Below, in pieces: positions 1 through 54,563 of a stretch of 64,000 bases of DNA. The notes beneath the pieces are model-generated. The model saw only the letters and a list, made by a program, of their open reading frames with translations, was not told the origin of the DNA and ran no database searches. Both the position numbers and the translations under genes were made by a program. Position 1 is the first letter of the stretch, and the number at the start of each line of letters is the position of its first letter. Origin of the DNA: Chloroflexota bacterium (GTDB taxonomy: Bacteria; Chloroflexota; Dormibacteria; CF-121); NCBI GenBank assembly GCA_034666565.1, contig JAXDLN010000119.1, positions 204,162-268,161 of the forward strand, written 5' to 3'.

Positions 1-798
1 GGGTCCGCCCTGGCTCCCCGGGAAGACGCTCTTGTCGATGTCCGCGGCGTACTTGGCCTTACACAGGATCATTGCGCCCCACGGCCCACGCATGGTTTTG
101 TGGGTGGTGAAGCTGACGAAGTCCGCATAGGGGACCGGGCTCGGATGCGCGCCGCCCGCGACCAGTCCGGCGAAGTGCGCCATGTCGACGAAGAAGTAGG
201 CGTCGACCGCCCGGGCAATCGCGGCCATCCGCTCGAAGTCCAGCAGGCGCGGGTAGGCGCTGTAGCCGGCGAGCAGCATCTTCGGCCGGACCTCTTTCGC
301 CTGCCGTTCGAGCGCGTCGTAGTCGATGCGCTCGGTGGTGGGATCGACGCCGTAGGGAACGAAGTGATAGAGCTTGCCGGAAAAGTTCACCGGGCTGCCG
401 TGGCTCAGGTGCCCGCCCTGGCTGAGGTCCATGCCCATCACGGTGTCGCCGACGCTGAGCACGGCCGCGTAGACCGCGTAGTTGGCGGTCGTGCCGCAAT
501 GGGATTGCACGTTGGCGTGCTCCGCCCCGAAGAGCGCTTTGGCGCGTTCGATGGCGAGCGTCTCGATGCGGTCGACGTTCTCGCAGCCACCGTAGTACCT
601 CTTGCCCGGATAGCCCTCCGCATATTTGTTGTTGAGCAGCGAGCCGAGCGCCTGTAAGACCGCCGGGCTGGCGATGTTCTCGGAGGGGATCAGCTCCAGC
701 GTGTACTGCTGGCGTTCGAATTCATCGCGGATCGCGGCACCGACCTCGGGATCGACCAGGTCGATCCGGCTGGTCAGATCGGTACGGGCCTGCAGCAC
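1..798 (-). CDS. glyA: serine hydroxymethyltransferase, N-terminal ~266 aa (C-terminus runs off the window start)
   Basis: Frame absent from the ORF track. My translation of the minus strand gives [44 protein letters not shown] ... [40 protein letters not shown], i.e. the SHMT N-terminus and PLP-lysine motif. Start is a GTG near 798. Confidence 0.88.
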
Positions 799-825
799 CG
801 GCTCATTATGGCGAAACCAGGCGCC

Positions 826-866
826 GCTACCCTACCCTCCCCCAGAGGGGGAGGGGGAGATTAGCT
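826..866 (-). repeat. copy A of a ~40-nt C-tract/G-tract hairpin/G4 repeat (CCCTCCCCC-AGA-GGGGGAGGG core), overlapping the tsaC 3' end
   Basis: Near-identical to the copies at 21966-22005 and 54266-54305. In tsaC frame it reads ...ISPSPSGGG-stop. Confidence 0.7.
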
Positions 867-1440
867 CGGACGCCGGAATCGCGCCCTGACGCAGGATCCG
901 CGGTGTCGCGCCGCTCAGGTCGAGGATGGTCGAGGGCTGACCGATGCGACAGGGTCCCCCGTCGAGCACGACATCGACGCGGTCGCCCAGGCCGGCGACG
1001 ACCTGGTCGGCATCGACCGGCGGCGGCGCACCCGCCAGGTTGGCACTACTGCTCGCGATCGGCTCATCAAGCGAGGTCAGCAGCGCGAGCGCAACCTGGT
1101 GGTTCGGGGCGCGCACGGCAATCGTTGCTCCGTCCGTTGGGATGCGGGCCGGCAGGACGAGCGTCAGTGGGCCCGGCCAGAAGCGCGCCATCAGCGCGGC
1201 GGCCGGGGCAGACACGACGGCGAAGGGTTCGACCTGGGCCTTATCGAGGACCAGCAATACCATGGGCTGCGCGGACGGGCGGTGCTTTACCTCGTAGAGG
1301 CGAGCGACGGCGACCGGGTCCGCGGCGCGCGCCGCGACCGCGTACAGCGTGTCGGTTGGGAAGGCGATCACGGCACCGGCGCGCAGCTGCTCGGCGGCCT
1401 GGGCGATGTGCGATGGATCCGCCGGCCACCGCACTGTCAC
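832..1440 (-). CDS. tsaC: L-threonylcarbamoyladenylate synthase (YrdC/TsaC family)
   Basis: AFPTDTLYAV motif matches YrdC (YPTEAVFGVG). Start set at the GTG at 1440 that overlaps the prmC stop (GTGA), giving ~202 aa. The track ORF carries an implausible 39-aa N-terminal extension. Confidence 0.8.
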   Translation of the reverse strand: MTVRWPADPSHIAQAAEQLRAGAVIAFPTDTLYAVAARAADPVAVARLYEVKHRPSAQPMVLLVLDKAQVEPFAVVSAPAAALMARFWPGPLTLVLPARIPTDGATIAVRAPNHQVALALLTSLDEPIASSSANLAGAPPPVDADQVVAGLGDRVDVVLDGGPCRIGQPSTILDLSGATPRILRQGAIPASELISPSPSGGG

Positions 1441-2300
1441 GTCTGGATGCGCACCACCCGGTTGAGTCCGGCCAGATCTTTGTGCACACTGATGTCGGCC
1501 GCGGGCCAGTGGCCCTGGGCGAGGCGCATGATGCGGCGCGTTTGCGCCGGGTCGCACTCGAACAGCAGCAGCCCGCCGGGTTTCACCGCTGCCGGGGCTT
1601 GCGCCAGCGCGGTGCGAATCAGGTCCAGCCCATCCGTGCCGCCGTCGAGGGCGAGCGCCGGCTCATACTCGAGTTCCTTCGGCCGGATCCGTCGAAGCGC
1701 CTCGGGAATGTAGGGCAGGTTGGCGAGGATCGCGTCGGCGGGGGCAGCCCCGCGCAGCAAGTTGGCCTTGACGGTCGTGATCCGCCGCCGGAGCCGGTAG
1801 TGAGCAATATTCTCGTCCGCCACTCGCAGCGCGCGGCGACTGACGTCGCGGGCCTCGATGCGAACCTGCGGGACGGCCTTGGCCACCGAGATGGCCACCG
1901 CCCCGCTGCCGGTGCCGAGGTCGATGACCCGGCGCGCGTTGGGATGCGTCTTGAACCAATCGATCGCCAGCTCGACCAGGAGCTCACTCGACGGCCGTGG
2001 AATCAACACCGCCGGGGTCACCAAGAACATGTGGCCGAAGAATTCGCGCTCTCCGACCAGGTAGGGCACCGGAACCCGGGCGGCTCGACGGCTGGTCAAC
2101 CGGCGCAGCCGTGCGCGCTGCGCGACCGTCAACTGCCGGTCGGGGTGACTGTGGAGCCGCTCGCGCGAACTCTTGAGGATGTGCGCCACCAGGATCTCGG
2201 CATCGAGCCATGGTAATGGGATCCCTGCCGTCGTAAGGGTCGCCCGTGTCTTCGCGAGCTGCGCCTTGACCCGGCCGGCGTTAGTTGCGGGCGGCGCCAT
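1437..2300 (-). CDS. prmC: release factor glutamine N5-methyltransferase (HemK/PrmC)
   Basis: VIDLGTGSGAVAIS SAM motif and NLPYIP (NPPY-type) motif. Lies downstream of prfA as in the classic prfA-hemK operon. Confidence 0.85.
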   Translation of the reverse strand: MAPPATNAGRVKAQLAKTRATLTTAGIPLPWLDAEILVAHILKSSRERLHSHPDRQLTVAQRARLRRLTSRRAARVPVPYLVGEREFFGHMFLVTPAVLIPRPSSELLVELAIDWFKTHPNARRVIDLGTGSGAVAISVAKAVPQVRIEARDVSRRALRVADENIAHYRLRRRITTVKANLLRGAAPADAILANLPYIPEALRRIRPKELEYEPALALDGGTDGLDLIRTALAQAPAAVKPGGLLLFECDPAQTRRIMRLAQGHWPAADISVHKDLAGLNRVVRIQT

Positions 2301-19155: not shown

Positions 19156-19182
19156 CGACGAAGCTTAGTGAAGGTTAGAGAA

Positions 19183-19254
19183 AGCCGCCTCGGGGATTCG
19201 AACCCCGGACCGATGGTTTACGAAACCATTGCTCTACCGCTGAGCTAAGGCGGC
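19183..19254 (-). tRNA. tRNA-Thr (anticodon CGU)
   Basis: Hand-folded cloverleaf: GCCGCCU-UA-GCUC-AGCGGU-AGAGC-A-AUGGU-UUCGUAA-ACCAU-CGGUC-CGGGG-UUCGAAU-CCCCG-AGGCGGC-U. CCA not encoded. Confidence 0.85.
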
Positions 19255-19273
19255 TCGCCAGCGCTCGGCTATT

Positions 19274-21910
19274 TTACGGTTCCGAGCCGTCCGACGAACC
19301 CGCGGCGACGACGGCAGGCTCCCGCGCACCCGCTTTGCGCAGGATCAGTGCACCGTCCACGGCATCGACCAGGACGGTGTCGCCCTCGCGGAACTTGCCG
19401 TCGAGCACCGCCATGGCGAGTGGGTCCTGTATACGGCGCTGGATGACTCGCTTGAGGGGGCGGGCGCCGAAGGTCGGGTCGTAGCCTTCGTTGGCGATGA
19501 CCTCGATGGCGGCGGGCGTTAACTGCAACGTGATCCGCCGATCGCCGAGGCGTTTGCGCAGCCGCTCGAGCTGGATATCGACGATGTGCTTGATCTGGTC
19601 CCTCGTCAGCGGCTTGAAGATGATGATCTCGTCGACGCGGTTGAGGAACTCGGGCCGGAAGTTGTGCCGCACCGCTTCGAGGACCGCCTTCTGCTTGTCA
19701 TCGTCGCTCAGGCTCGGATCCTGCAGGATGTGGCTGCCGAGGTTCGACGTCATGATGATGACGGTATTCCGGAAGTCGACGGTGCGGCCCTGGCCGTCGG
19801 TCAGGCGCCCGTCCTCGAGGATCTGCAGCAGGATGTTGAACACATCCGGGTGCGCCTTCTCGATTTCGTCGAACAGGATGACGCTGTAGGGTCGGCGGCG
19901 GACCGCCTCGGTGAGCTGACCGCCCTCTTCGTAGCCGACGTAGCCAGGGGGCGCGCCGACGAGCCGCGCGACGGTGTGCTTCTCCATGTATTCGGACATG
20001 TCGATGCGGACCATCGCCTGCTCGTTGTCGAACAGGAATTCAGCAAGGGCGCGGGCCAGCTCGGTCTTCCCCACGCCGGTCGGTCCGAGGAAGATGAACG
20101 ACCCGATCGGTCGATTGGGATCGCTCAGTCCGGCACGGCCGCGGCGAACCGCGTTGGCGACCGCCGTGACGGCCTCATCCTGGCCGACCACGCGCGCATG
20201 CAGCCGCTCCTCCATCTTGATCAGCTTCTGGACTTCGCCTTCGAGCATCTTCTGCACCGGGATGCCGGTCCAGCGGGACACGATCTTGGCGATGTCCTCT
20301 TCGTCGACCTCTTCCTTGAGAAGGCGATGCTCCTTCTGAAGGGCGACGAGCTCGGTGTTCTTCGCCTCGAGGTCCTTTACGACCTTGGGCACCTCGCCGT
20401 ACTTCAGGCGAGCGGCCGCTTCGAAATCCGCCATTCGCTCGGCGCGCTCGGCGTCGAGGCGCAACTGCTCGAGTCGCGCCTTGAGCTCCCGGATCGATTG
20501 GATGAGCGCCTTCTCCTGCTGCCACTGCGACCGCATGACTTTGCTCTGTTCCTGCAGGTTGGCGAGCTCCTTCTCGATCGCGGTGAGCCGATCCTTCGAG
20601 GCACGGTCCTGCTCTTTCTTGAGCGCCTGCCGCTCGATCTCGAGCTGTCGAATCTGGCGCTCGATCTCGTCGAGCTCCTGGGGCAGGCTGTCGATCTCCA
20701 TGCGCAGGCTGGAGGCGGCCTCGTCGATCAGGTCGATCGCCTTATCCGGCAGGAAACGGTCGGTGATGTAGCGGTGTGAGAGCACCGCGGCGGACACGAT
20801 GGCGGAGTCCGTGATCCGCACGCCGTGATGGACCTCGTACTTTTCCTTGAGACCGCGAAGGATTGAGATGGTGTCTTCGACCGATGGCTCGCCGACGAAG
20901 ATCGGCTGGAAGCGCCGTTCGAGCGCCGCATCCTTTTCGATGTACTTTCGATACTCGTCGAGCGTCGTGGCGCCGACGCAACGGAGCTGGCCACGAGCCA
21001 ACGCCGGCTTCAGCAGGTTGGAGGCGTCCATCGCACCCTCGGCGGCCCCGGCACCCACGAGCGTGTGGAGCTCGTCGATGAAGAGGATGACCTTGCCGTT
21101 CGATGACTCGATCTCTTTCAGGACGGCCTTCAGCCGGTCTTCGAATTCGCCGCGGTACTTGGTACCGGCAATCAGCGAACCGAGGTCGAGCGAGTGGACG
21201 CGCTTGTCTTTGAGCGACTCGGGCACATCACCCTGCGCGATCCGCTGGGCAAGTCCCTCGACGATGGCCGTCTTGCCAACGCCGGCCTCGCCGATCAACA
21301 CCGGGTTGTTCTTGGTACGGCGCGAGAGGACCTGGATGACGCGACGGATCTCCTGCTCGCGGCCGATGACCGGATCGAGCTTGCCTTCGCGGGCGAGCGC
21401 GGTCAGGTCGCGGGTGTACTTTTCGAGCACCTGGAACTTGGATTCGGGCGATGCATCGGTGACCCTGGTCGAGCCGCGCACCTTGGTGAGCGCTTCGAGC
21501 ACCTTCTCGCGGGTGACGCCGGCCCGTTGCAAAATCTTGGCGCCCTCGCTGTTCGTCTCATCGATGATCGCGAGCAGCAGATGCTCGGTGGAGAGGTACT
21601 CATCCTTGAGCCGCTCCATTTCGTTCGAGGCCGAATCCAACAGGCGGCGGAGCCGGGAACCCAGGTAGGTCTCGGCGCCGTAGACCTTAGGTAGTCGGTC
21701 GAGCTGGGCTTTCAGCTCGCCTTCGACTCGCGATGGTTCCACGCCGATCTGCTGCAGGATGGGGCGAACCGTGCCGTCCTGCTGCTGCAGCAAGGCGTAC
21801 AAGAGGTGCTCGGGCGTGATCTCCTGGTGCTGGGCTTCCTGCGCAAGCGACTGCGCTTGCTGGATTGCCTCCTGGGTCTTTTCGGTTAATCGGTCAGGGC
21901 GAAACGGCAT
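19274..21910 (-). CDS. clpB: ATP-dependent chaperone ClpB
   Basis: 878 aa with two AAA+ modules and a middle coiled-coil domain, N-terminal Clp_N. Confidence 0.95.
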
Positions 21911-21965
21911 AGTGTGGGTCTACCCGACTCAGAATATCCCTTAAACGAGCCAGCCGCCAAACGGT

Positions 21966-22005
21966 CCGCCCCCACCCCGCCCTCCCCCAGAGGGGGAGGG
22001 GAAAA
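21966..22005 (-). repeat. copy B of the C-tract/G-tract hairpin/G4 repeat, in the dnaK-clpB spacer
   Basis: ccccaccccgccctcccccagagggggagggg. Minus-strand sense: CCCCUCCCCC-UCU-GGGGGAGGG-CGGGGUGGGGGC. Confidence 0.7.
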
Positions 22006-22013
22006 AATCCTGG

Positions 22014-23918
<1,905 letters not shown>

Positions 23919-24040
23919 CTCGTAGTACTCCTTAAAGGATATGGGGCCCCGGCGCACTCGCGCCCCGGGCAAGCTGGGCGGTATATACCCTCGCCAATTC
24001 GGCGCTAAACGATACGAACCCTAGAATAGTTTCAGGTTAT

Positions 24041-28558: not shown

Positions 28559-29304
28559 TCGCGACCTATACCCGCAGGGAGTTGATGGTGGTGGCGGCCG
28601 CCCGCGAGATCCGTGACGGCGAGGTCGTGTTCGTTGGGATGCGCCTCCCGCTTCTCGGCTTCGGCCTGGCTAAGGCCACCCACGCTCCGACCGCGGTCGG
28701 CCTCTTCGAGAACGGCGTCATCCGCGATCGGCCCGCCGAGGCCTTCATCTACACCATGGGCGATCCGCCCAATATCGTCGGGGCGATCGCCTGCCTTGGA
28801 CTCATCGACGTGATGAGCCTGCTGCAGCAGGGGCGAGTCGACGTCGGCTTCATCGGCGGCGCGGAACTCGACCCGCACGGCAACCTCAACACCACCCGAA
28901 CGAGCGGCAGCGGCTCGCTGGTCCGCCTGCCGGGGAGCGGCGGGGGCGGCGATATCGCCTCGCTCGCGGGACGAACCGTCTTGATCATGGAGCACGAGCC
29001 GCGCCGTTTTCGCGAGCGCGTCGACTACATCACATCCCCTGGGCATTTCCCCGGGCGGCGCCGCGGTGGTCCTGCCACCCTGATCACGACGCTTGGCGTT
29101 TTCGATCTTTCGAGCGGGCAGGTCCGAGCGGTCAGCTTGCATCCTGGCGTTACCCCGGCGCAGGTGCGTGACGCGACCGGCTTCACGATTGCGATCGACG
29201 ACGCGGTTGCGGCCACAACCCCGCCTTCCACGGATGAGCTCGCTTACATCCGGCGCGCCGATCCGGAGGGCTTTTGGACCGGGGACAGGACGAAAGGCGA
29301 GTGA
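28555..29304 (+). CDS. CoA-transferase subunit B (GctB-like)
   Basis: MIATYTRRELMVVAAAREIRDGEVVFVGMRLP and LPGSGGGGDIA match GctB. ATGA overlap with subunit A. Confidence 0.85.
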   Translation: MIATYTRRELMVVAAAREIRDGEVVFVGMRLPLLGFGLAKATHAPTAVGLFENGVIRDRPAEAFIYTMGDPPNIVGAIACLGLIDVMSLLQQGRVDVGFIGGAELDPHGNLNTTRTSGSGSLVRLPGSGGGGDIASLAGRTVLIMEHEPRRFRERVDYITSPGHFPGRRRGGPATLITTLGVFDLSSGQVRAVSLHPGVTPAQVRDATGFTIAIDDAVAATTPPSTDELAYIRRADPEGFWTGDRTKGE

Positions 29305-31271
29305 CAGTGGCGGCTCCGGTTTGGTCTCCGACGGAACAGCAGGCACGCCAGAGCCGGCTGTGGCGCTTCATGCACGAGCTCGGCTGCACCAGCTACCCGG
29401 AGCTCTGTCAGAAGGCCGCGCAGAACCCAGGCTGGTTCTGGGATGCGCTGGTCAAGGATCTCGGCATCGTGTGGTCGACGCCCTATGGCGAGGTCATGGA
29501 CACATCACCAGGCATTCCCCTGACCCGGTGGTTCCCCGGCGGACGGTTGAACGCCTATGAGTCGGCGGTGGTCCGCTACCGCCGGTTGGATCCAGACCGC
29601 CTCGCCATCATCGGCGAGACCGAGGCGGGGACCTCAAGGCAGCTGACCTATGCGCAACTCGATGAGACAGTGGAACGGGTCGCAAGCGGGCTGCGCGAGA
29701 TCGGCGTCGAGCGCGGGGTTGCGGTCGGGCTCTACCTGCCGCTCGTCATCGAGAATGCCGTCGCGCTGTTGGCCTGTACCAAGCTAGGGGCGGTCGCGGT
29801 GCCGCTCTTCTCGGGCTTCGGCGCGGAGGCCATCCGTCAGCGGTTGTCCGATGCGCAGGCACGTGTGCTGATCACGGCGGACGCCGCCGTGCGGCGCGGC
29901 CGGCCGGTCTTGATGAAGCCGATCGCCGTGGAAGCCGCCGCCGGACTGCCAGACCTGGACCGGCTCGTCGTGGTGCGGTGCGCGGGTGTCGACACGGCGA
30001 AGGACGGTGGCCGCGAGGTCGCGTGGGAGGATCTGGACCTGCCGCGTCCTCCGGTGGCCACGGAAGCAATGCGGCCGGATGAACCGTTGTTGCTCCTCTA
30101 CACCTCGGGCACGACCGGCCGCCCCAAGGGGACGGTGCATGGACACGCGGGTCTCCCGATCAAGGCCGCGCAGGATTGGGCGCTCGGGATGGACGTCCGG
30201 CCGGGTGAGCGCGTGATGTGGGTGACCGACATGGGCTGGGTGATGGGGCCGTTGCTCGTGTACGGCAGCCTGATGCTGGGCGGCACCGCGGTCTTCTACG
30301 ACGGCGCTCCCGATTATCCAGAGCCACGGCGTGTGTGGGACGTGGCGGACCATCAGGGCGTCACGCACCTCGGCATCTCCCCCACCCTCACCCGAGTCTT
30401 GATGGCATCGGGCGATCGGGCCGCCCCGCAGCGACCCGTCTCCCGGCTGCGCGTGCTGGCGTCGACCGGCGAGCCCTGGACCCCCGAAGCGTGGACCTGG
30501 CTGTTCGAGACGGTCGGCCGCGAGCAGGTCCCGATCATGAATTACTCCGGTGGGACCGAGTGCGGAGGCGGCCTGCTGTCGGGAAACTTCCTCACCCCCT
30601 CGAAGCCGGGCAGTTTCGCGGGCCCGATCCCCGGCATCGATGCCGCCGTTTTCAACGACCGCGGTCAGCCGGTCACGGGCGAGGTGGGCGAGCTGGTCAT
30701 CCGCCAGCCGTACCTGGGGATGACGCTCGGATTCTGGAAAGACCCGCAGCGCTACCTCGAGACCTACTGGTCGCGCTGGCCCGACATCTGGGTGCACGGC
30801 GATTGGGCGATGGTCGACAAGGATGGGCTCTGGTACATCCTCGGGCGATCCGACGACACCATCAAGGTCGCGGGCAAACGGGTGGGACCGGCCGAGGTCG
30901 AAGCCGCGGCCCTCGATGGCACGGCCGCGGCGGAGGCGGCCGCCGTCGGAGTCCCCGACCCGATCAAGGGTCAATCGGTGGTGGTCTTCACCGTCGCTCG
31001 GCCCGGCGCGGATCCCGCCGCGATCCCGGGGGCGGTGTCTCGCAGCATCGAACGGTTACTGGGCAAGCCCTTCAAGCCGGCGGCGGTGCACGTCATCCCG
31101 CGCCTGCCCAAGACGCGCAACGGCAAGATCCTGCGGCGCGTGATCCGCAACGTCTTCCTCGGCGACCCGCCCGGCGATCTGTCATCGATCGACGACCTCG
31201 CCTCACTCGAACCGATCCGCCAGCTCGGCAGTTCTCCCTCCGCCTCTGGCGACGGGCAGGGTGGGGGCTAG
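29301..31271 (+). CDS. AMP-forming acyl-CoA synthetase (acetyl/propionyl/acetoacetyl-CoA synthetase family)
   Basis: Acs-type N-domain and YTSGTTGRPKG AMP motif. GTGA overlap start at 29301 (alternative ATG at 29274). Confidence 0.8.
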   Translation: MTVAAPVWSPTEQQARQSRLWRFMHELGCTSYPELCQKAAQNPGWFWDALVKDLGIVWSTPYGEVMDTSPGIPLTRWFPGGRLNAYESAVVRYRRLDPDRLAIIGETEAGTSRQLTYAQLDETVERVASGLREIGVERGVAVGLYLPLVIENAVALLACTKLGAVAVPLFSGFGAEAIRQRLSDAQARVLITADAAVRRGRPVLMKPIAVEAAAGLPDLDRLVVVRCAGVDTAKDGGREVAWEDLDLPRPPVATEAMRPDEPLLLLYTSGTTGRPKGTVHGHAGLPIKAAQDWALGMDVRPGERVMWVTDMGWVMGPLLVYGSLMLGGTAVFYDGAPDYPEPRRVWDVADHQGVTHLGISPTLTRVLMASGDRAAPQRPVSRLRVLASTGEPWTPEAWTWLFETVGREQVPIMNYSGGTECGGGLLSGNFLTPSKPGSFAGPIPGIDAAVFNDRGQPVTGEVGELVIRQPYLGMTLGFWKDPQRYLETYWSRWPDIWVHGDWAMVDKDGLWYILGRSDDTIKVAGKRVGPAEVEAAALDGTAAAEAAAVGVPDPIKGQSVVVFTVARPGADPAAIPGAVSRSIERLLGKPFKPAAVHVIPRLPKTRNGKILRRVIRNVFLGDPPGDLSSIDDLASLEPIRQLGSSPSASGDGQGGG

Positions 31272-52615: not shown

Positions 52616-53418
52616 TTCCGCCCTCGCATCTGCACCGCCGGCGCGCCCGGGTTCTCGAGGTTGATGTACTGGATCTGCGCGGAGGTGAAATCGATCCGGC
52701 TGCTGAGCGCCCGCAGGGCCGCCAACTTCGGCTCCAGGGTGGCGCGGTCGTCGCTGGTGACCATCTGGCCGAAGATGATGGTCCATCCGCGGTCGGTTTG
52801 CGCACTCAGCACCTGGCGGCGGTCGAGCTGAAAGGACATCAGCGAGATTTTGAACGCCGGAGCAAAGCCGGCCTTCAACTGCAGCAGCATGGGCAGCAGG
52901 TCGCGGTCGACCGCATGCTGGCCGAAGGCTACCGGGCCGAAGTCGGGCCGGTTGATCACCGTCAGTCCGCCGGCCTCCGCGGCCGGGTCGAGGACCTGAC
53001 CGAGATCATTCATGGCGTAGGTCGCCTCCCCCACCTGAAGGACGGCCGATGGCTTCCACTCGGTGATCCTTGCCGTGACCCGGTCGGGCAGGGCCAGGCT
53101 GACAGTCGCCGACCGGACCCAGGGCATCGCCATCAGGCGCTGCTCGAGCTCGCCGTGGTTGAGAAAGAAGATGTTGCGGTCTGCCGGGAGCGCAAGCGCC
53201 GTAGTGATTTGCGCCGGCGTGAGATGGGTCGTGCCGATTACCTCGACCTGCCGCGGCCGGAAGGCCGGCTGTGCCAGGAGGAAAAGCGCGGCGAAGACTT
53301 CGGCACCGAGGATCGCGATCTGTGCCACCGCCCAGATCCAGCCACGCGAGGATGCGCGAGACTTGGCCGGCGCCGGGGCGGTTCGCCGCCGTCGCTTGGA
53401 GATGGTGCCGACCGTCAT
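52612..53418 (-). CDS. ftsQ: cell division protein FtsQ/DivIB
   Basis: N-terminal TM, POTRA domain and FtsQ beta domain. Located between ddl and ftsA. Confidence 0.8.
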   Translation of the reverse strand: MTVGTISKRRRRTAPAPAKSRASSRGWIWAVAQIAILGAEVFAALFLLAQPAFRPRQVEVIGTTHLTPAQITTALALPADRNIFFLNHGELEQRLMAMPWVRSATVSLALPDRVTARITEWKPSAVLQVGEATYAMNDLGQVLDPAAEAGGLTVINRPDFGPVAFGQHAVDRDLLPMLLQLKAGFAPAFKISLMSFQLDRRQVLSAQTDRGWTIIFGQMVTSDDRATLEPKLAALRALSSRIDFTSAQIQYINLENPGAPAVQMRGRK

Positions 53419-54563
53419 TCGGCGGCCTCGGGCGGAAGCAGGCGGCTGTCGATCGCCGTCTGCGAGCGCTGCCGGTCGTTGAATCGCTCGATGGCGAGTT
53501 CGACCAGGCGCTCGATCAGCGTTGGGTAGGGCAGACCCGAGGCTTCCCAGAGCTTGGGATACATGCTGATGCGCGTAAACCCCGGGATAGTGTTGAGCTC
53601 GTTGAGGAGGAGCCGGCCGGAGGCGCGCTCCATGAAGAAGTCCACCCGGGCCATGCCGGCGGCGTCCACCGCCTGGAAGGCGCGCACCGCCATGCCCTGA
53701 GCCTCTTGCGCGACGGCGTCGTCGACCGGGGCCGGGATCAGCAGCCGAGAGCCCTCGTCGAGATATTTCGCGTCGTAGTCATAGAACTCGTGCGCCGGCA
53801 CCACCTCGCCCACGACCGAGGCCTCGGGCTCGTCATTGCCGAGGACGCTGATCTCGAGTTCGCGGGCATCGACGGCGCGTTCCACCAGCAGCTTGCGATC
53901 AAACGTACTGGCGAGGCGAAGCCCCTCGACCAGCTCGTCGCGGTTGTGGGCCTTGGTGGTGCCGACGCTGGAGCCGGAGTTCGCGAACTTCGTGAAGCAC
54001 GGGTATCCGATCCGCTCTTCGACCAGGGCGACAAACGCATCGGGGTCGCGCTCGTACTGGCGGCGCGTCGTCGGCAGGTAGTCGACCACCGGCAGACCTG
54101 CGGCGGCAAACGCGCGCTTCATGTAGATCTTGTCGAGGCCGAGCGCCGACCCAAGCACCCCGGCGCCGACGTAGGGAAGGTTGGCCAGCTCGAGCACCCC
54201 CTGGATGGTGCCGTCCTCACCGTTGAGGCCGTGAAAGACGGGGAAGACGACATCAAGTGGGAGAAGGCCCCCACCCTGCCCTCCCCCGGGGGGCGAGGGA
54301 GATTCCCGACCGTCCTGGGCCGGAACAAGTGAGTGTTGGGTTGGGTCCGGGGGCAGATAGACGTAGGTGCGGGCCGCGGCGTTGCTCACGAGCCGCTGAA
54401 GGGAATCACCGGTTAGCCAGCGACCCTCCTTGTCGATGTAGAGTGGCACCGCCTCGAAGCGTTGTGGATCCATGGCGGCGATGATCGACTGGGCTGAAAG
54501 GATGGAGACCTCGTGCTCGGTCGACCGCCCGCCGAATAGGACCCCGACCCGCAGCCGCTTCAC
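53415..54563 (-). CDS. ddl: D-alanine--D-alanine ligase (carries an in-frame repeat-derived ~12-aa insertion)
   Basis: MKRLRVGVLFGGRSTEHEVS, DVVFPVFHGLNGEDGTIQG and ATP-grasp motifs. The SPSPPGGGQGGG insert is encoded by repeat copy C. Confidence 0.92.
   Translation of the reverse strand: MKRLRVGVLFGGRSTEHEVSILSAQSIIAAMDPQRFEAVPLYIDKEGRWLTGDSLQRLVSNAAARTYVYLPPDPTQHSLVPAQDGRESPSPPGGGQGGGLLPLDVVFPVFHGLNGEDGTIQGVLELANLPYVGAGVLGSALGLDKIYMKRAFAAAGLPVVDYLPTTRRQYERDPDAFVALVEERIGYPCFTKFANSGSSVGTTKAHNRDELVEGLRLASTFDRKLLVERAVDARELEISVLGNDEPEASVVGEVVPAHEFYDYDAKYLDEGSRLLIPAPVDDAVAQEAQGMAVRAFQAVDAAGMARVDFFMERASGRLLLNELNTIPGFTRISMYPKLWEASGLPYPTLIERLVELAIERFNDRQRSQTAIDSRLLPPEAAE
54266..54305 (-). repeat. 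copy C of the C-tract/G-tract hairpin/G4 repeat, in-frame inside ddl
   Basis: ggcccccaccctgccctcccccggggggcgagggagatt. Minus-sense: AAUCUCCCUCGCCCCCCGGGGGAGGGCAGGGUGGGGGCC. Confidence 0.7.

Follow-up and report, generated by a model that had tools for sequence, protein, structure and literature searches.

The 64-kb window analysed here (the whole stretch of 64,000 nt from contig JAXDLN010000119.1) contains four copies, A to D, of a short GC-rich repeat, one of which lies between the heat-shock genes dnaK and clpB. We consider it probable, at roughly 70%, that these copies are GC-rich class II purine-motif intrastrand triplex repeats of the BoxC/PIT/TM family, which are tolerated where they are present and whose effect would be mainly local instability and not regulation. 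By its Ddl, ClpB and TsaC homologues, the window is assigned to Candidatus Dormibacterota, some of the records being labelled Chloroflexota. A preliminary description of this DNA had read the repeat as a hairpin/G-quadruplex (G4) switch; filing the eye-catching ‘G4 before a heat-shock gene’ under a family described since the 1990s would head off a likely over-interpretation.

The census of copies covered both strands of the window with the 33-nt consensus CCCTCCCCCTCTGGGGGAGGGCAGGGTGGGGGC at up to 7 mismatches, and returned exactly four matching places:

21968-22000, minus strand: copy B, 1 mismatch
823-855, minus strand: copy A, 3 mismatches
54267-54299, minus strand: copy C, 3 mismatches
31236-31268, plus strand: copy D, degenerate, 4 mismatches

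No sequence within 6 mismatches of this consensus was found in 300 dinucleotide-preserving shuffles. A strict three-arm finder (8-nt arms, no more than one bad triplet) identified copies B and C in the window versus none in 300 shuffles. As the G+C content of the window is ~66%, the shuffles are the relevant control, and in both searches they rule out a chance or low-complexity origin of the repeat. The family reported in the preliminary description is therefore genuine. Its three copies lie where they had been placed and are read on the minus strand; the count was short by the fourth copy, D at 31236, and the single shared orientation is contradicted by the plus-strand position of that copy, although all four copies are sense to their local gene.

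Every copy has the same order of parts: a pyrimidine arm (Y, CCCTCCCCC), a 3-nt loop, a purine arm (R, GGGGGAGGG), a 2-nt loop (CG, CA or TA) and a third arm, GGGTGGGGG. Arms, loops and register are the same across all four copies, in which the parts read as follows:

21969-22000, minus strand: copy B, intact, 9/9 triplets matched; Y CCCTCCCCC at 21992-22000, loop TCT at 21989-21991, R GGGGGAGGG at 21980-21988, loop CG at 21978-21979, third (reverse-Hoogsteen) arm GGGTGGGGG at 21969-21977
54268-54299, minus strand: copy C, 8/9 triplets matched; Y CCCTCGCCC at 54291-54299, loop CCC, R GGGGGAGGG at 54279-54287, loop CA, third arm GGGTGGGGG at 54268-54276
824-855, minus strand: copy A, 7/9 triplets, third arm decayed; Y CCCTCCCCC at 847-855, loop TCT, R GGGGGAGGG at 835-843, loop TA, third arm GGGTAGCGG at 824-832
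31236-31267, plus strand: copy D, degenerate, third-arm contacts decayed further than those of copy A; Y CCCTCCGCC at 31236-31244, loop TCT, R GGCGACGGG at 31248-31256, loop CA, third arm GGGTGGGGG at 31259-31267

The Y and R arms are Watson-Crick complementary, with 9/9 pairs in copies A and B, 8/9 in C and 7/9 in D (one of them an inverted G-C pair). R is mirrored by the third arm: when the two are set antiparallel, each G of the third arm faces a G and its single T faces the single A of R. The geometry predicted from these arms is that of a purine-motif (reverse-Hoogsteen) intrastrand DNA triplex, in which G·G-C and T·A-T triplets are formed by a third strand that runs antiparallel to the purine strand. 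That the C-tract pairs with the first G-block, over 9 bp in A and B, and that the last arm of copy A is damaged had both been correctly described before. Copy B is directly preceded by TTTTTT. The triplets of copy D amount to about 5-6/9, as read from its arms; its inverted pair (31236-31256, plus strand), in which first-arm C7 is changed to G together with second-arm G3 to C, keeps the hairpin pairing and is incompatible with a purine third-strand contact.

The ITxF definition of a GC-rich class II intrastrand triplex comprises arms of 6-15 nt, loops of 1-6 nt and no more than one mismatched triplet; copies B and C fall within the one-mismatch limit, and the decayed copies A and D fall outside it. 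Watson-Crick Y and R arms, an antiparallel third arm, excess over composition and variability among close relatives were all found. No inverted pairs of the element were present within the 64 kb, and no GTAG-type conserved flank was seen beside the copies.

Sequence evidence on the fold comes from the register of the third arm. In the E. coli element the purine arm, GGGAGAGGG, is mirror-symmetric and cannot separate mirror from direct order; the R arm GGGGGAGGG is asymmetric and can. Hairpins were selected in public viral-contig collections for the stem and loop only, whatever sequence followed, and the tails behind them were then scored. The direct-register counterpart of the third arm, GGGGGTGGG, would retain the G4 potential and lose the triplex. 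Of 97 non-redundant CCCTCCCCC-N3-GGGGGAGGG hairpins, 16 were followed within 4 nt by the mirror tail GGGWGGGGG, and none was followed so by the direct tail GGGGGWGGG. For 93 of these hairpins 50-nt flanks were available; at a distance of 15-30 nt they showed 25 more mirror tails, in many cases beyond another small hairpin, versus 6 direct ones. In the reciprocal hairpins CCCCCTCCC-N3-6-GGGAGGGGG (n = 132), the mirror tail, here GGGGGWGGG, occurred 30 times and the direct GGGWGGGGG once. With both subtypes pooled, mirror tails outnumber direct ones 46 to 1 (Fisher's exact test on the two-by-two table of subtype and tail, p = 1e-11), numbers whose weight is limited by their being counts of copies and not of independent events, from two hairpin subtypes and with viral contigs as their sole source.

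The identity of the facing base follows the same rule. In all 45 cases the tail base opposite the A was A or T, with no C among them, and wherever the A is shifted in the purine arm, the T or A of the third arm shifts with it, keeping to antiparallel register. Among triplets, both T·A-T and A·A-T are permitted, whereas in a G4 these A/T residues are loop bases, of which neither position nor identity should matter. The mirror excess and the restriction to A/T are thus regularities predicted by a triplex and not by a G4, and they support the triplex register as a conserved feature of the family.

Two further arrangements were observed among the viral contigs. About a quarter of the sampled hairpins belong to a composite type whose second loop forms a small hairpin of its own, e.g., GGGGGAGGG-t-GGTCGCGCAGCGACC-GGGTGGGGG, with the mirror third arm 15-30 nt off (examples are at L046:2696, L006:5396, L019:5437 and L050:4117). 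In one viral contig (L387:1197-5628), a different repeat without a third arm occurs in seven spaced copies; it is built around the hairpin CCCCCTCCCGAAGGGAGGGGG, and its flanks (gaacagaa ... aagttctact) are conserved.

Judged by these features, the window repeat belongs to the published BoxC/PIT/TM family. Holder et al. 2015 (PMC4666352) surveyed intrastrand triplex motifs in 5246 prokaryotic genomes and plasmids, with the GC-rich class II consensus 5'-CCCTCNCCC-N3-6-GGGNGAGGG-N3-GGGNGAGGG-3'; the motif was formerly known as BoxC and later as the PIT element (Hoyne & Maher 2000, 2002, as cited there) and is called TM_ECO in E. coli. The order of parts on the single strand (pyrimidine arm, loop, purine arm, loop, G-rich third arm) is the same, as are the first-arm pattern CCCTCNCCC, the second-arm pattern GGGNGAGGG, the 9-nt arms and the first loop of 3-6 nt; copies A and B (CCCTCCCCC-TCT-GGGGGAGGG) fit the first arm, first loop and second arm of TM_ECO. 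Both are dispersed low-copy repeats, variable among close relatives, with a T-rich or CT 5' flank. The differences are that the purine arm in the window is asymmetric (N = G), the third arm is GGGTGGGGG and not GGGNGAGGG, and the second loop has 2 nt in place of 3. In the third arm, the A-to-G change matches N = G of the purine arm, which preserves the triplet. Moreover, the host belongs to Dormibacterota and not to Proteobacteria, three of the four window copies overlap coding sequence, whereas the TM_ECO copies of E. coli K-12 are always intergenic and without strand bias (PMC4666352), and the inverted pairs described for E. coli are missing from this window. What is new here, as far as sequence comparison goes, is the asymmetric-arm subtype, the phylum and the location partly inside genes. 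The hairpin-first covariation, with a third arm that tracks the purine arm in antiparallel register, also goes slightly beyond the cited literature, the asymmetric subtype revealing what is hidden in the symmetric consensus of E. coli.

For the E. coli element, circular dichroism (CD) and nuclear magnetic resonance (NMR) of a DNA oligonucleotide were read as a triplex rather than a G4 (18 imino signals, melting temperature 70-82 °C), and polymerase stops at the element; loci bearing the motif are more variable between strains than control loci (PMC4666352). A query built from the TM_ECO consensus matched 5409 of the 5426 complete E. coli genomes, the per-genome median being 18 places; none of the matches listed lies on an annotated feature.

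The family is widely spread across bacteria. Scanning a species-representative genome collection with the exact three-arm motif (27 specified bases), we found it in at least 120 stretches; hosts among the matches listed include Bacteroidota, Alpha-, Beta-, Gamma- and Deltaproteobacteria, Planctomycetota, Nitrospirota, Chloroflexota, the candidate phyla radiation (CPR) and Firmicutes. The 134 non-redundant copies from the matches listed have a first loop of 3-6 nt (CTTGA, CTTGC, GCTTGC, TCT and others), a second loop of 2-3 nt, a central base of the third arm that is T in 95 and A in 39, and mostly YT in the two positions 5' of the first arm. Pairs of inverted elements on opposite strands, 30-90 nt apart, were seen at seven genome loci (L099, L102, L113, L118, L137, L143 and L157), an arrangement described for E. 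coli BoxC/TM too. No bias of orientation relative to genes was found in this sample (same versus opposite strand 76 vs 68 for flanking genes and 23 vs 16 inside open reading frames (ORFs)), the count being coarse, as it used a gene caller based on G+C at third codon positions (GC3) that mis-called several known window genes. Given this, the sense orientation of all four window copies is probably due to chance.

The genes around the four copies are:

22014-23972, minus strand: dnaK (HSP70) ORF, upstream of copy B
19274-21910, minus strand: clpB ORF, downstream of copy B
53415-54563, minus strand: ddl (D-alanine--D-alanine ligase) ORF, containing copy C
832-1557, minus strand: tsaC/sua5-type L-threonylcarbamoyladenylate synthase ORF, ending in copy A
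29274-31271, plus strand: acyl-CoA synthetase ORF, ending in copy D

Copy B is the only intergenic one; as described before, it occupies the spacer between the dnaK stop (22014) and the clpB start (21910). For the others the gene context is not the one assumed earlier: copy C, which is in no untranslated region, lies in frame within the ddl coding sequence (translated ...ESPSPPGGGQGGGLLP... / ..RESPSPPGGGQGGGLLPLDVVFPV..), and each of copies A and D overlaps a coding sequence at its 3' end. Copy A provides the last codons of tsaC (..ELISPSPSGGG-stop), the stop TAG (832-834) being formed by its second loop and the first G of its third arm; glyA follows on the same strand with its start at 806. 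Homologues of TsaC have 196-207 aa, and the true start of tsaC is probably later than that of this ORF. Copy D forms the C-terminus of the acyl-CoA synthetase (..SSPSASGDGQGGG-stop), with the stop TAG at 31269-31271 directly after it. The three coding copies (A, C and D) share one reading frame of the element. In an alignment of Ddl with solved DdlA-type structures, the stretch encoded by the element falls into a poorly conserved, gapped segment before the DVVFPV strand. An AlphaFold2 model of Ddl built with 26 close relatives had a predicted local distance difference test score (pLDDT) of 35 and was discarded.

Short structured repeats that sit in frame within protein genes and are tolerated as extra peptide are familiar from Rickettsia palindromic elements (RPE); these are 100-150 bp long and AT-rich, unlike the window repeat, and we know of no triplex symmetry in them and no sequence similarity to it.

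Comparison with relatives revealed presence/absence polymorphism at three of the four sites: tsaC, dnaK-clpB and ddl. At the ddl site, 114 of 120 close homologues (83-96% identity) have a Ser/Pro/Gly-rich stretch, and a metagenome scan with Ddl retrieved at least five close relatives. The 12 orthologues examined as DNA comprise two with 9/9 triplets, three with 8/9, three with 6/9, two that have lost exactly Y, loop and R and kept the third arm, and two more distant ones with no trace of the element. Matching is thus 8-9/9 in five of the eight element-bearing orthologues, even as the first loop varies in length and sequence (CCC, TTG, TTGT, CTTGC, GCTCGC) and compensating 1-nt shifts place the G-arms in two frames (SGGGQGGG versus AGEGRGGG) with the arms still matched. 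The two hairpin-less short alleles (L416:10001-11119 and L417:2246-3367) retain the third arm as GGGGTGTGGGG and GGGTGGGGGCC; their deletion boundaries differ, so that they look like independent excisions of the hairpin. In-frame elements kept in Dormibacterota genes, one of them essential, for long evolutionary times and lost by hairpin-precise deletion are likewise slightly beyond what the cited literature describes.

Turnover at the other sites is of the same kind. Among 115 tsaC homologues, 73 end with ..ELIRG-stop and lack the element, and 42 end with it, the stop being either in the second loop (..SPSPSGGG-stop) or reached after reading through all arms (..SPSPSGGGQGGGx-stop). Between filled and empty sites, 48 nt (the element plus 13 nt) replace 5 nt just before the overlapping stop/start ATAATG, with no target-site duplication. 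An empty tsaC-glyA junction (L418:10545-10660) has the overlapping stop/start cggggATAATG; in filled junctions (window 760-900 and L419:9290-9430) the element is accompanied by the 13-nt extension GCCTGGTTTCGCC or GACTGATTTCGCC. Relatives whose ClpB is 96% and 95% identical have the dnaK-clpB copy; in a relative with 91% identical ClpB the spacer is ~20 nt long and has neither the element nor a conserved block upstream of clpB. One relative has a similarly decayed copy at the end of its acyl-CoA synthetase orthologue. Apart from the orthologous copies, ~140 kb of sequence from relatives contained none, and 685 kb of distant ddl loci were likewise without a copy. Fitch parsimony on a tree built by the unweighted pair group method with arithmetic mean (UPGMA) gave 26 steps for TsaC against a permuted-label minimum of 27, the tree being weak, and left the six short Ddl alleles scattered.

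A mechanism can be proposed that would account for this behaviour. When the G-rich strand becomes single-stranded, be it in replication, in repair or on the non-template side of a transcription bubble, its C-rich arm would pair with the first G-rich arm into a 9-bp hairpin, and the second G-rich arm would fold back after the 2-nt loop, antiparallel to the purine arm in the major groove, to give a strand with eight G·G-C triplets and one T·A-T triplet. H-DNA mirror repeats share the mirror symmetry of the purine tract and the reverse-Hoogsteen G·G-C and T·A-T triplets; they form from duplex DNA under supercoiling, whereas here the pyrimidine partner is on the same strand and a single strand would fold alone. 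Such a compact and very stable fold may impede polymerases and provoke slippage or repair, which would explain both the deletions among the relatives and the local variability in E. coli. In a compact Dormibacterota genome, copies would persist where they are tolerated, in one spacer and otherwise in coding sequence, the sense frame of the coding copies yielding a harmless Ser/Pro/Gly-rich peptide (SPSPSGGGQGGG) in the variable stretch of Ddl or in a C-terminal tail.

Several observations, besides the dependence among the counted copies, weigh against this interpretation. In vivo footprinting of the E. coli element with dimethyl sulfate (DMS) was negative, i.e., the triplex was not detected (PMC4666352). 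The CD of the E. coli element differs between K+ and Li+/Mg2+ (PMC5100583), and an archaeal analogue that forms a triplex in Li+ or K+ turns into a G4 after annealing in K+ (PMC8044849). In RNA, coarse ViennaRNA G4 energies favour a G4 in copies B and C (G-part about -29 to -32 kcal/mol versus about -24 for the hairpin). Finally, arms of ddl that stay matched while the first loop changes could reflect selection for function, or repeated conversion between copies, and not neutral persistence.

The last point raises the question whether the arms are kept by selection on the structure of the nucleic acid and not on the peptide, even inside the essential ddl, which we hold to be a long shot. If true, the coding sequence would contain a DNA-level signal, candidates being a programmed pause of replication or transcription and a repair or recombination signal; before clpB, an ion- or temperature-sensitive hairpin/triplex/G4 switch would be a candidate too. 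The ddl genes of the Dormibacterota clade offer a natural test bed for a structure that is selected versus one that is tolerated.

The preliminary description proposed such a switch between hairpin and G4, in mRNA or non-template DNA, which in the dnaK-clpB spacer would tune clpB by temperature or K+; we regard this as unlikely. It rightly recognised a G4 motif in copies B and C, whose four G-tracts are separated by 1-2-nt loops and score 2.4-3.0 with G4Hunter on the G-part, and the RNA energies given above make this fold competitive; the sense orientation of all four copies would also suit it. The last G-block, however, is a mirror third arm whose triplex register is conserved in a manner not expected of a G4, copies A and D are members of the family without having four G-tracts, the imino signals of the E. 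coli DNA oligonucleotide were read as a triplex, and the broad sample shows no orientation bias with respect to genes (subject to the noisy gene caller). As to the regulatory part, three of the four copies are in coding sequence, both the element and the entire spacer are missing from the close relative whose ClpB is 91% identical, and E. coli elements had neither promoter nor terminator activity, according to Hoyne & Maher 2002 as cited in PMC4666352. A dedicated role of the element in clpB control is unsupported.

A G4-hairpin switch has already been put forward for the E. coli version: from CD in different ions, HPG1/HPG2 were described by Kaplan et al. 2016 (PMC5100583) as ‘G-quadruplex-hairpin-duplex switch’ motifs of E. 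coli. We take these to be the E. coli BoxC/TM element, seen as four G-tracts ~3 nt after a C-rich arm. Theirs is the same reading as the hairpin/G4 of the preliminary description, with CD as its sole basis and the register of the third strand ignored. The archaeal analogue is a recurrent potential quadruplex sequence (PQS) of Methanomicrobiaceae with an adjacent C-tract (Front Microbiol 2021, PMC8044849). It resembles the window repeat in its G-rich block with a complementary C3TC3, in the in vitro equilibrium of hairpin, antiparallel triplex and G4 and in its occurrence as intergenic repeats near gene ends; it differs in its archaeal hosts and in the reversed order of arms, the C-tract being 3' of the G-block.

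The second alternative is a miniature mobile element, moved by a trans-acting enzyme (REP/RAYT-like or other) that recognises the folded DNA, so that the structure would matter for mobility alone. The polymorphism at three of the four sites and the near-identical three-arm units in very distant phyla are what such an element would leave behind. The ddl first-loop versions CTTGC and GCTCGC (cf. GCTTGC), carried by different relatives at one orthologous site, are also among the commonest loops in other phyla, which fits replacement or conversion by other copies. Against this, filled and empty versions of the tsaC site show neither target-site duplication nor terminal inverted repeats, what differs at dnaK-clpB is a 90-nt spacer and not a clean insertion, the motif has no association with transposons, phages or plasmids (PMC4666352), and its density is low (four copies in 64 kb, with no extra ones in the ~140 kb from relatives). 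We therefore rate mobilisation as quite improbable, and prefer intrastrand triplex repeats that are tolerated and locally unstable.

That the 9-bp G-C stem acts as an RNA hairpin alone, as a REP-like 3'-end protector, a processing barrier or a terminator without a U-tract, the third arm being incidental, is very unlikely: its stability as RNA (about -23 to -25 kcal/mol), its site between two genes of the heat-shock cluster and the report that purine-motif triplexes do not form in RNA, leaving hairpin or G4 (PMC4666352), speak for it, but it leaves the conserved, register-specific third arm unexplained, termination at copy C in the middle of an essential gene would be harmful, and the E. coli elements had no terminator activity in the work of Hoyne & Maher 2002 cited above. 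No T/U-run follows copy B and no promoter or terminator was called in a scan of 21700-22300, in line with the earlier statement that it is no canonical terminator. Rfam 15 at gathering scores matched only a transfer-messenger RNA (tmRNA) and a tRNA in the window, and even at E-values up to 10 only chance-level matches overlapped copy B, with no RNA family among them. REP/BIME sequences are likewise short GC-rich hairpin repeats between genes of one operon; they differ in having no third arm, in being tied to RAYT transposases and in serving as RNA stabilisers and as gyrase/IHF binding sites.

Immediately upstream of the clpB ATG, at 21911-21950 on the minus strand, lies a block of ~38 nt, TCGTTTAAGGGATATTCTGAGTCGGGTAGACCCACACT, which is near-identical in two relatives (L294 and L295) and is missing with the whole spacer in a third (L296). 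It holds a weak inverted repeat, TCTGAGT-N7-ACCCACA, and may be a candidate promoter or operator of clpB. Among the other features of the window, a second ‘tmRNA*’ call of ARAGORN at 36178-36950 looks spurious. The tmRNA gene itself is located at 36856-37222 on the minus strand (tag ANRQLAYAA, Rfam 155 bits), and a tRNA-Thr(CGU) gene lies just downstream of clpB at 19182-19255, also on the minus strand.

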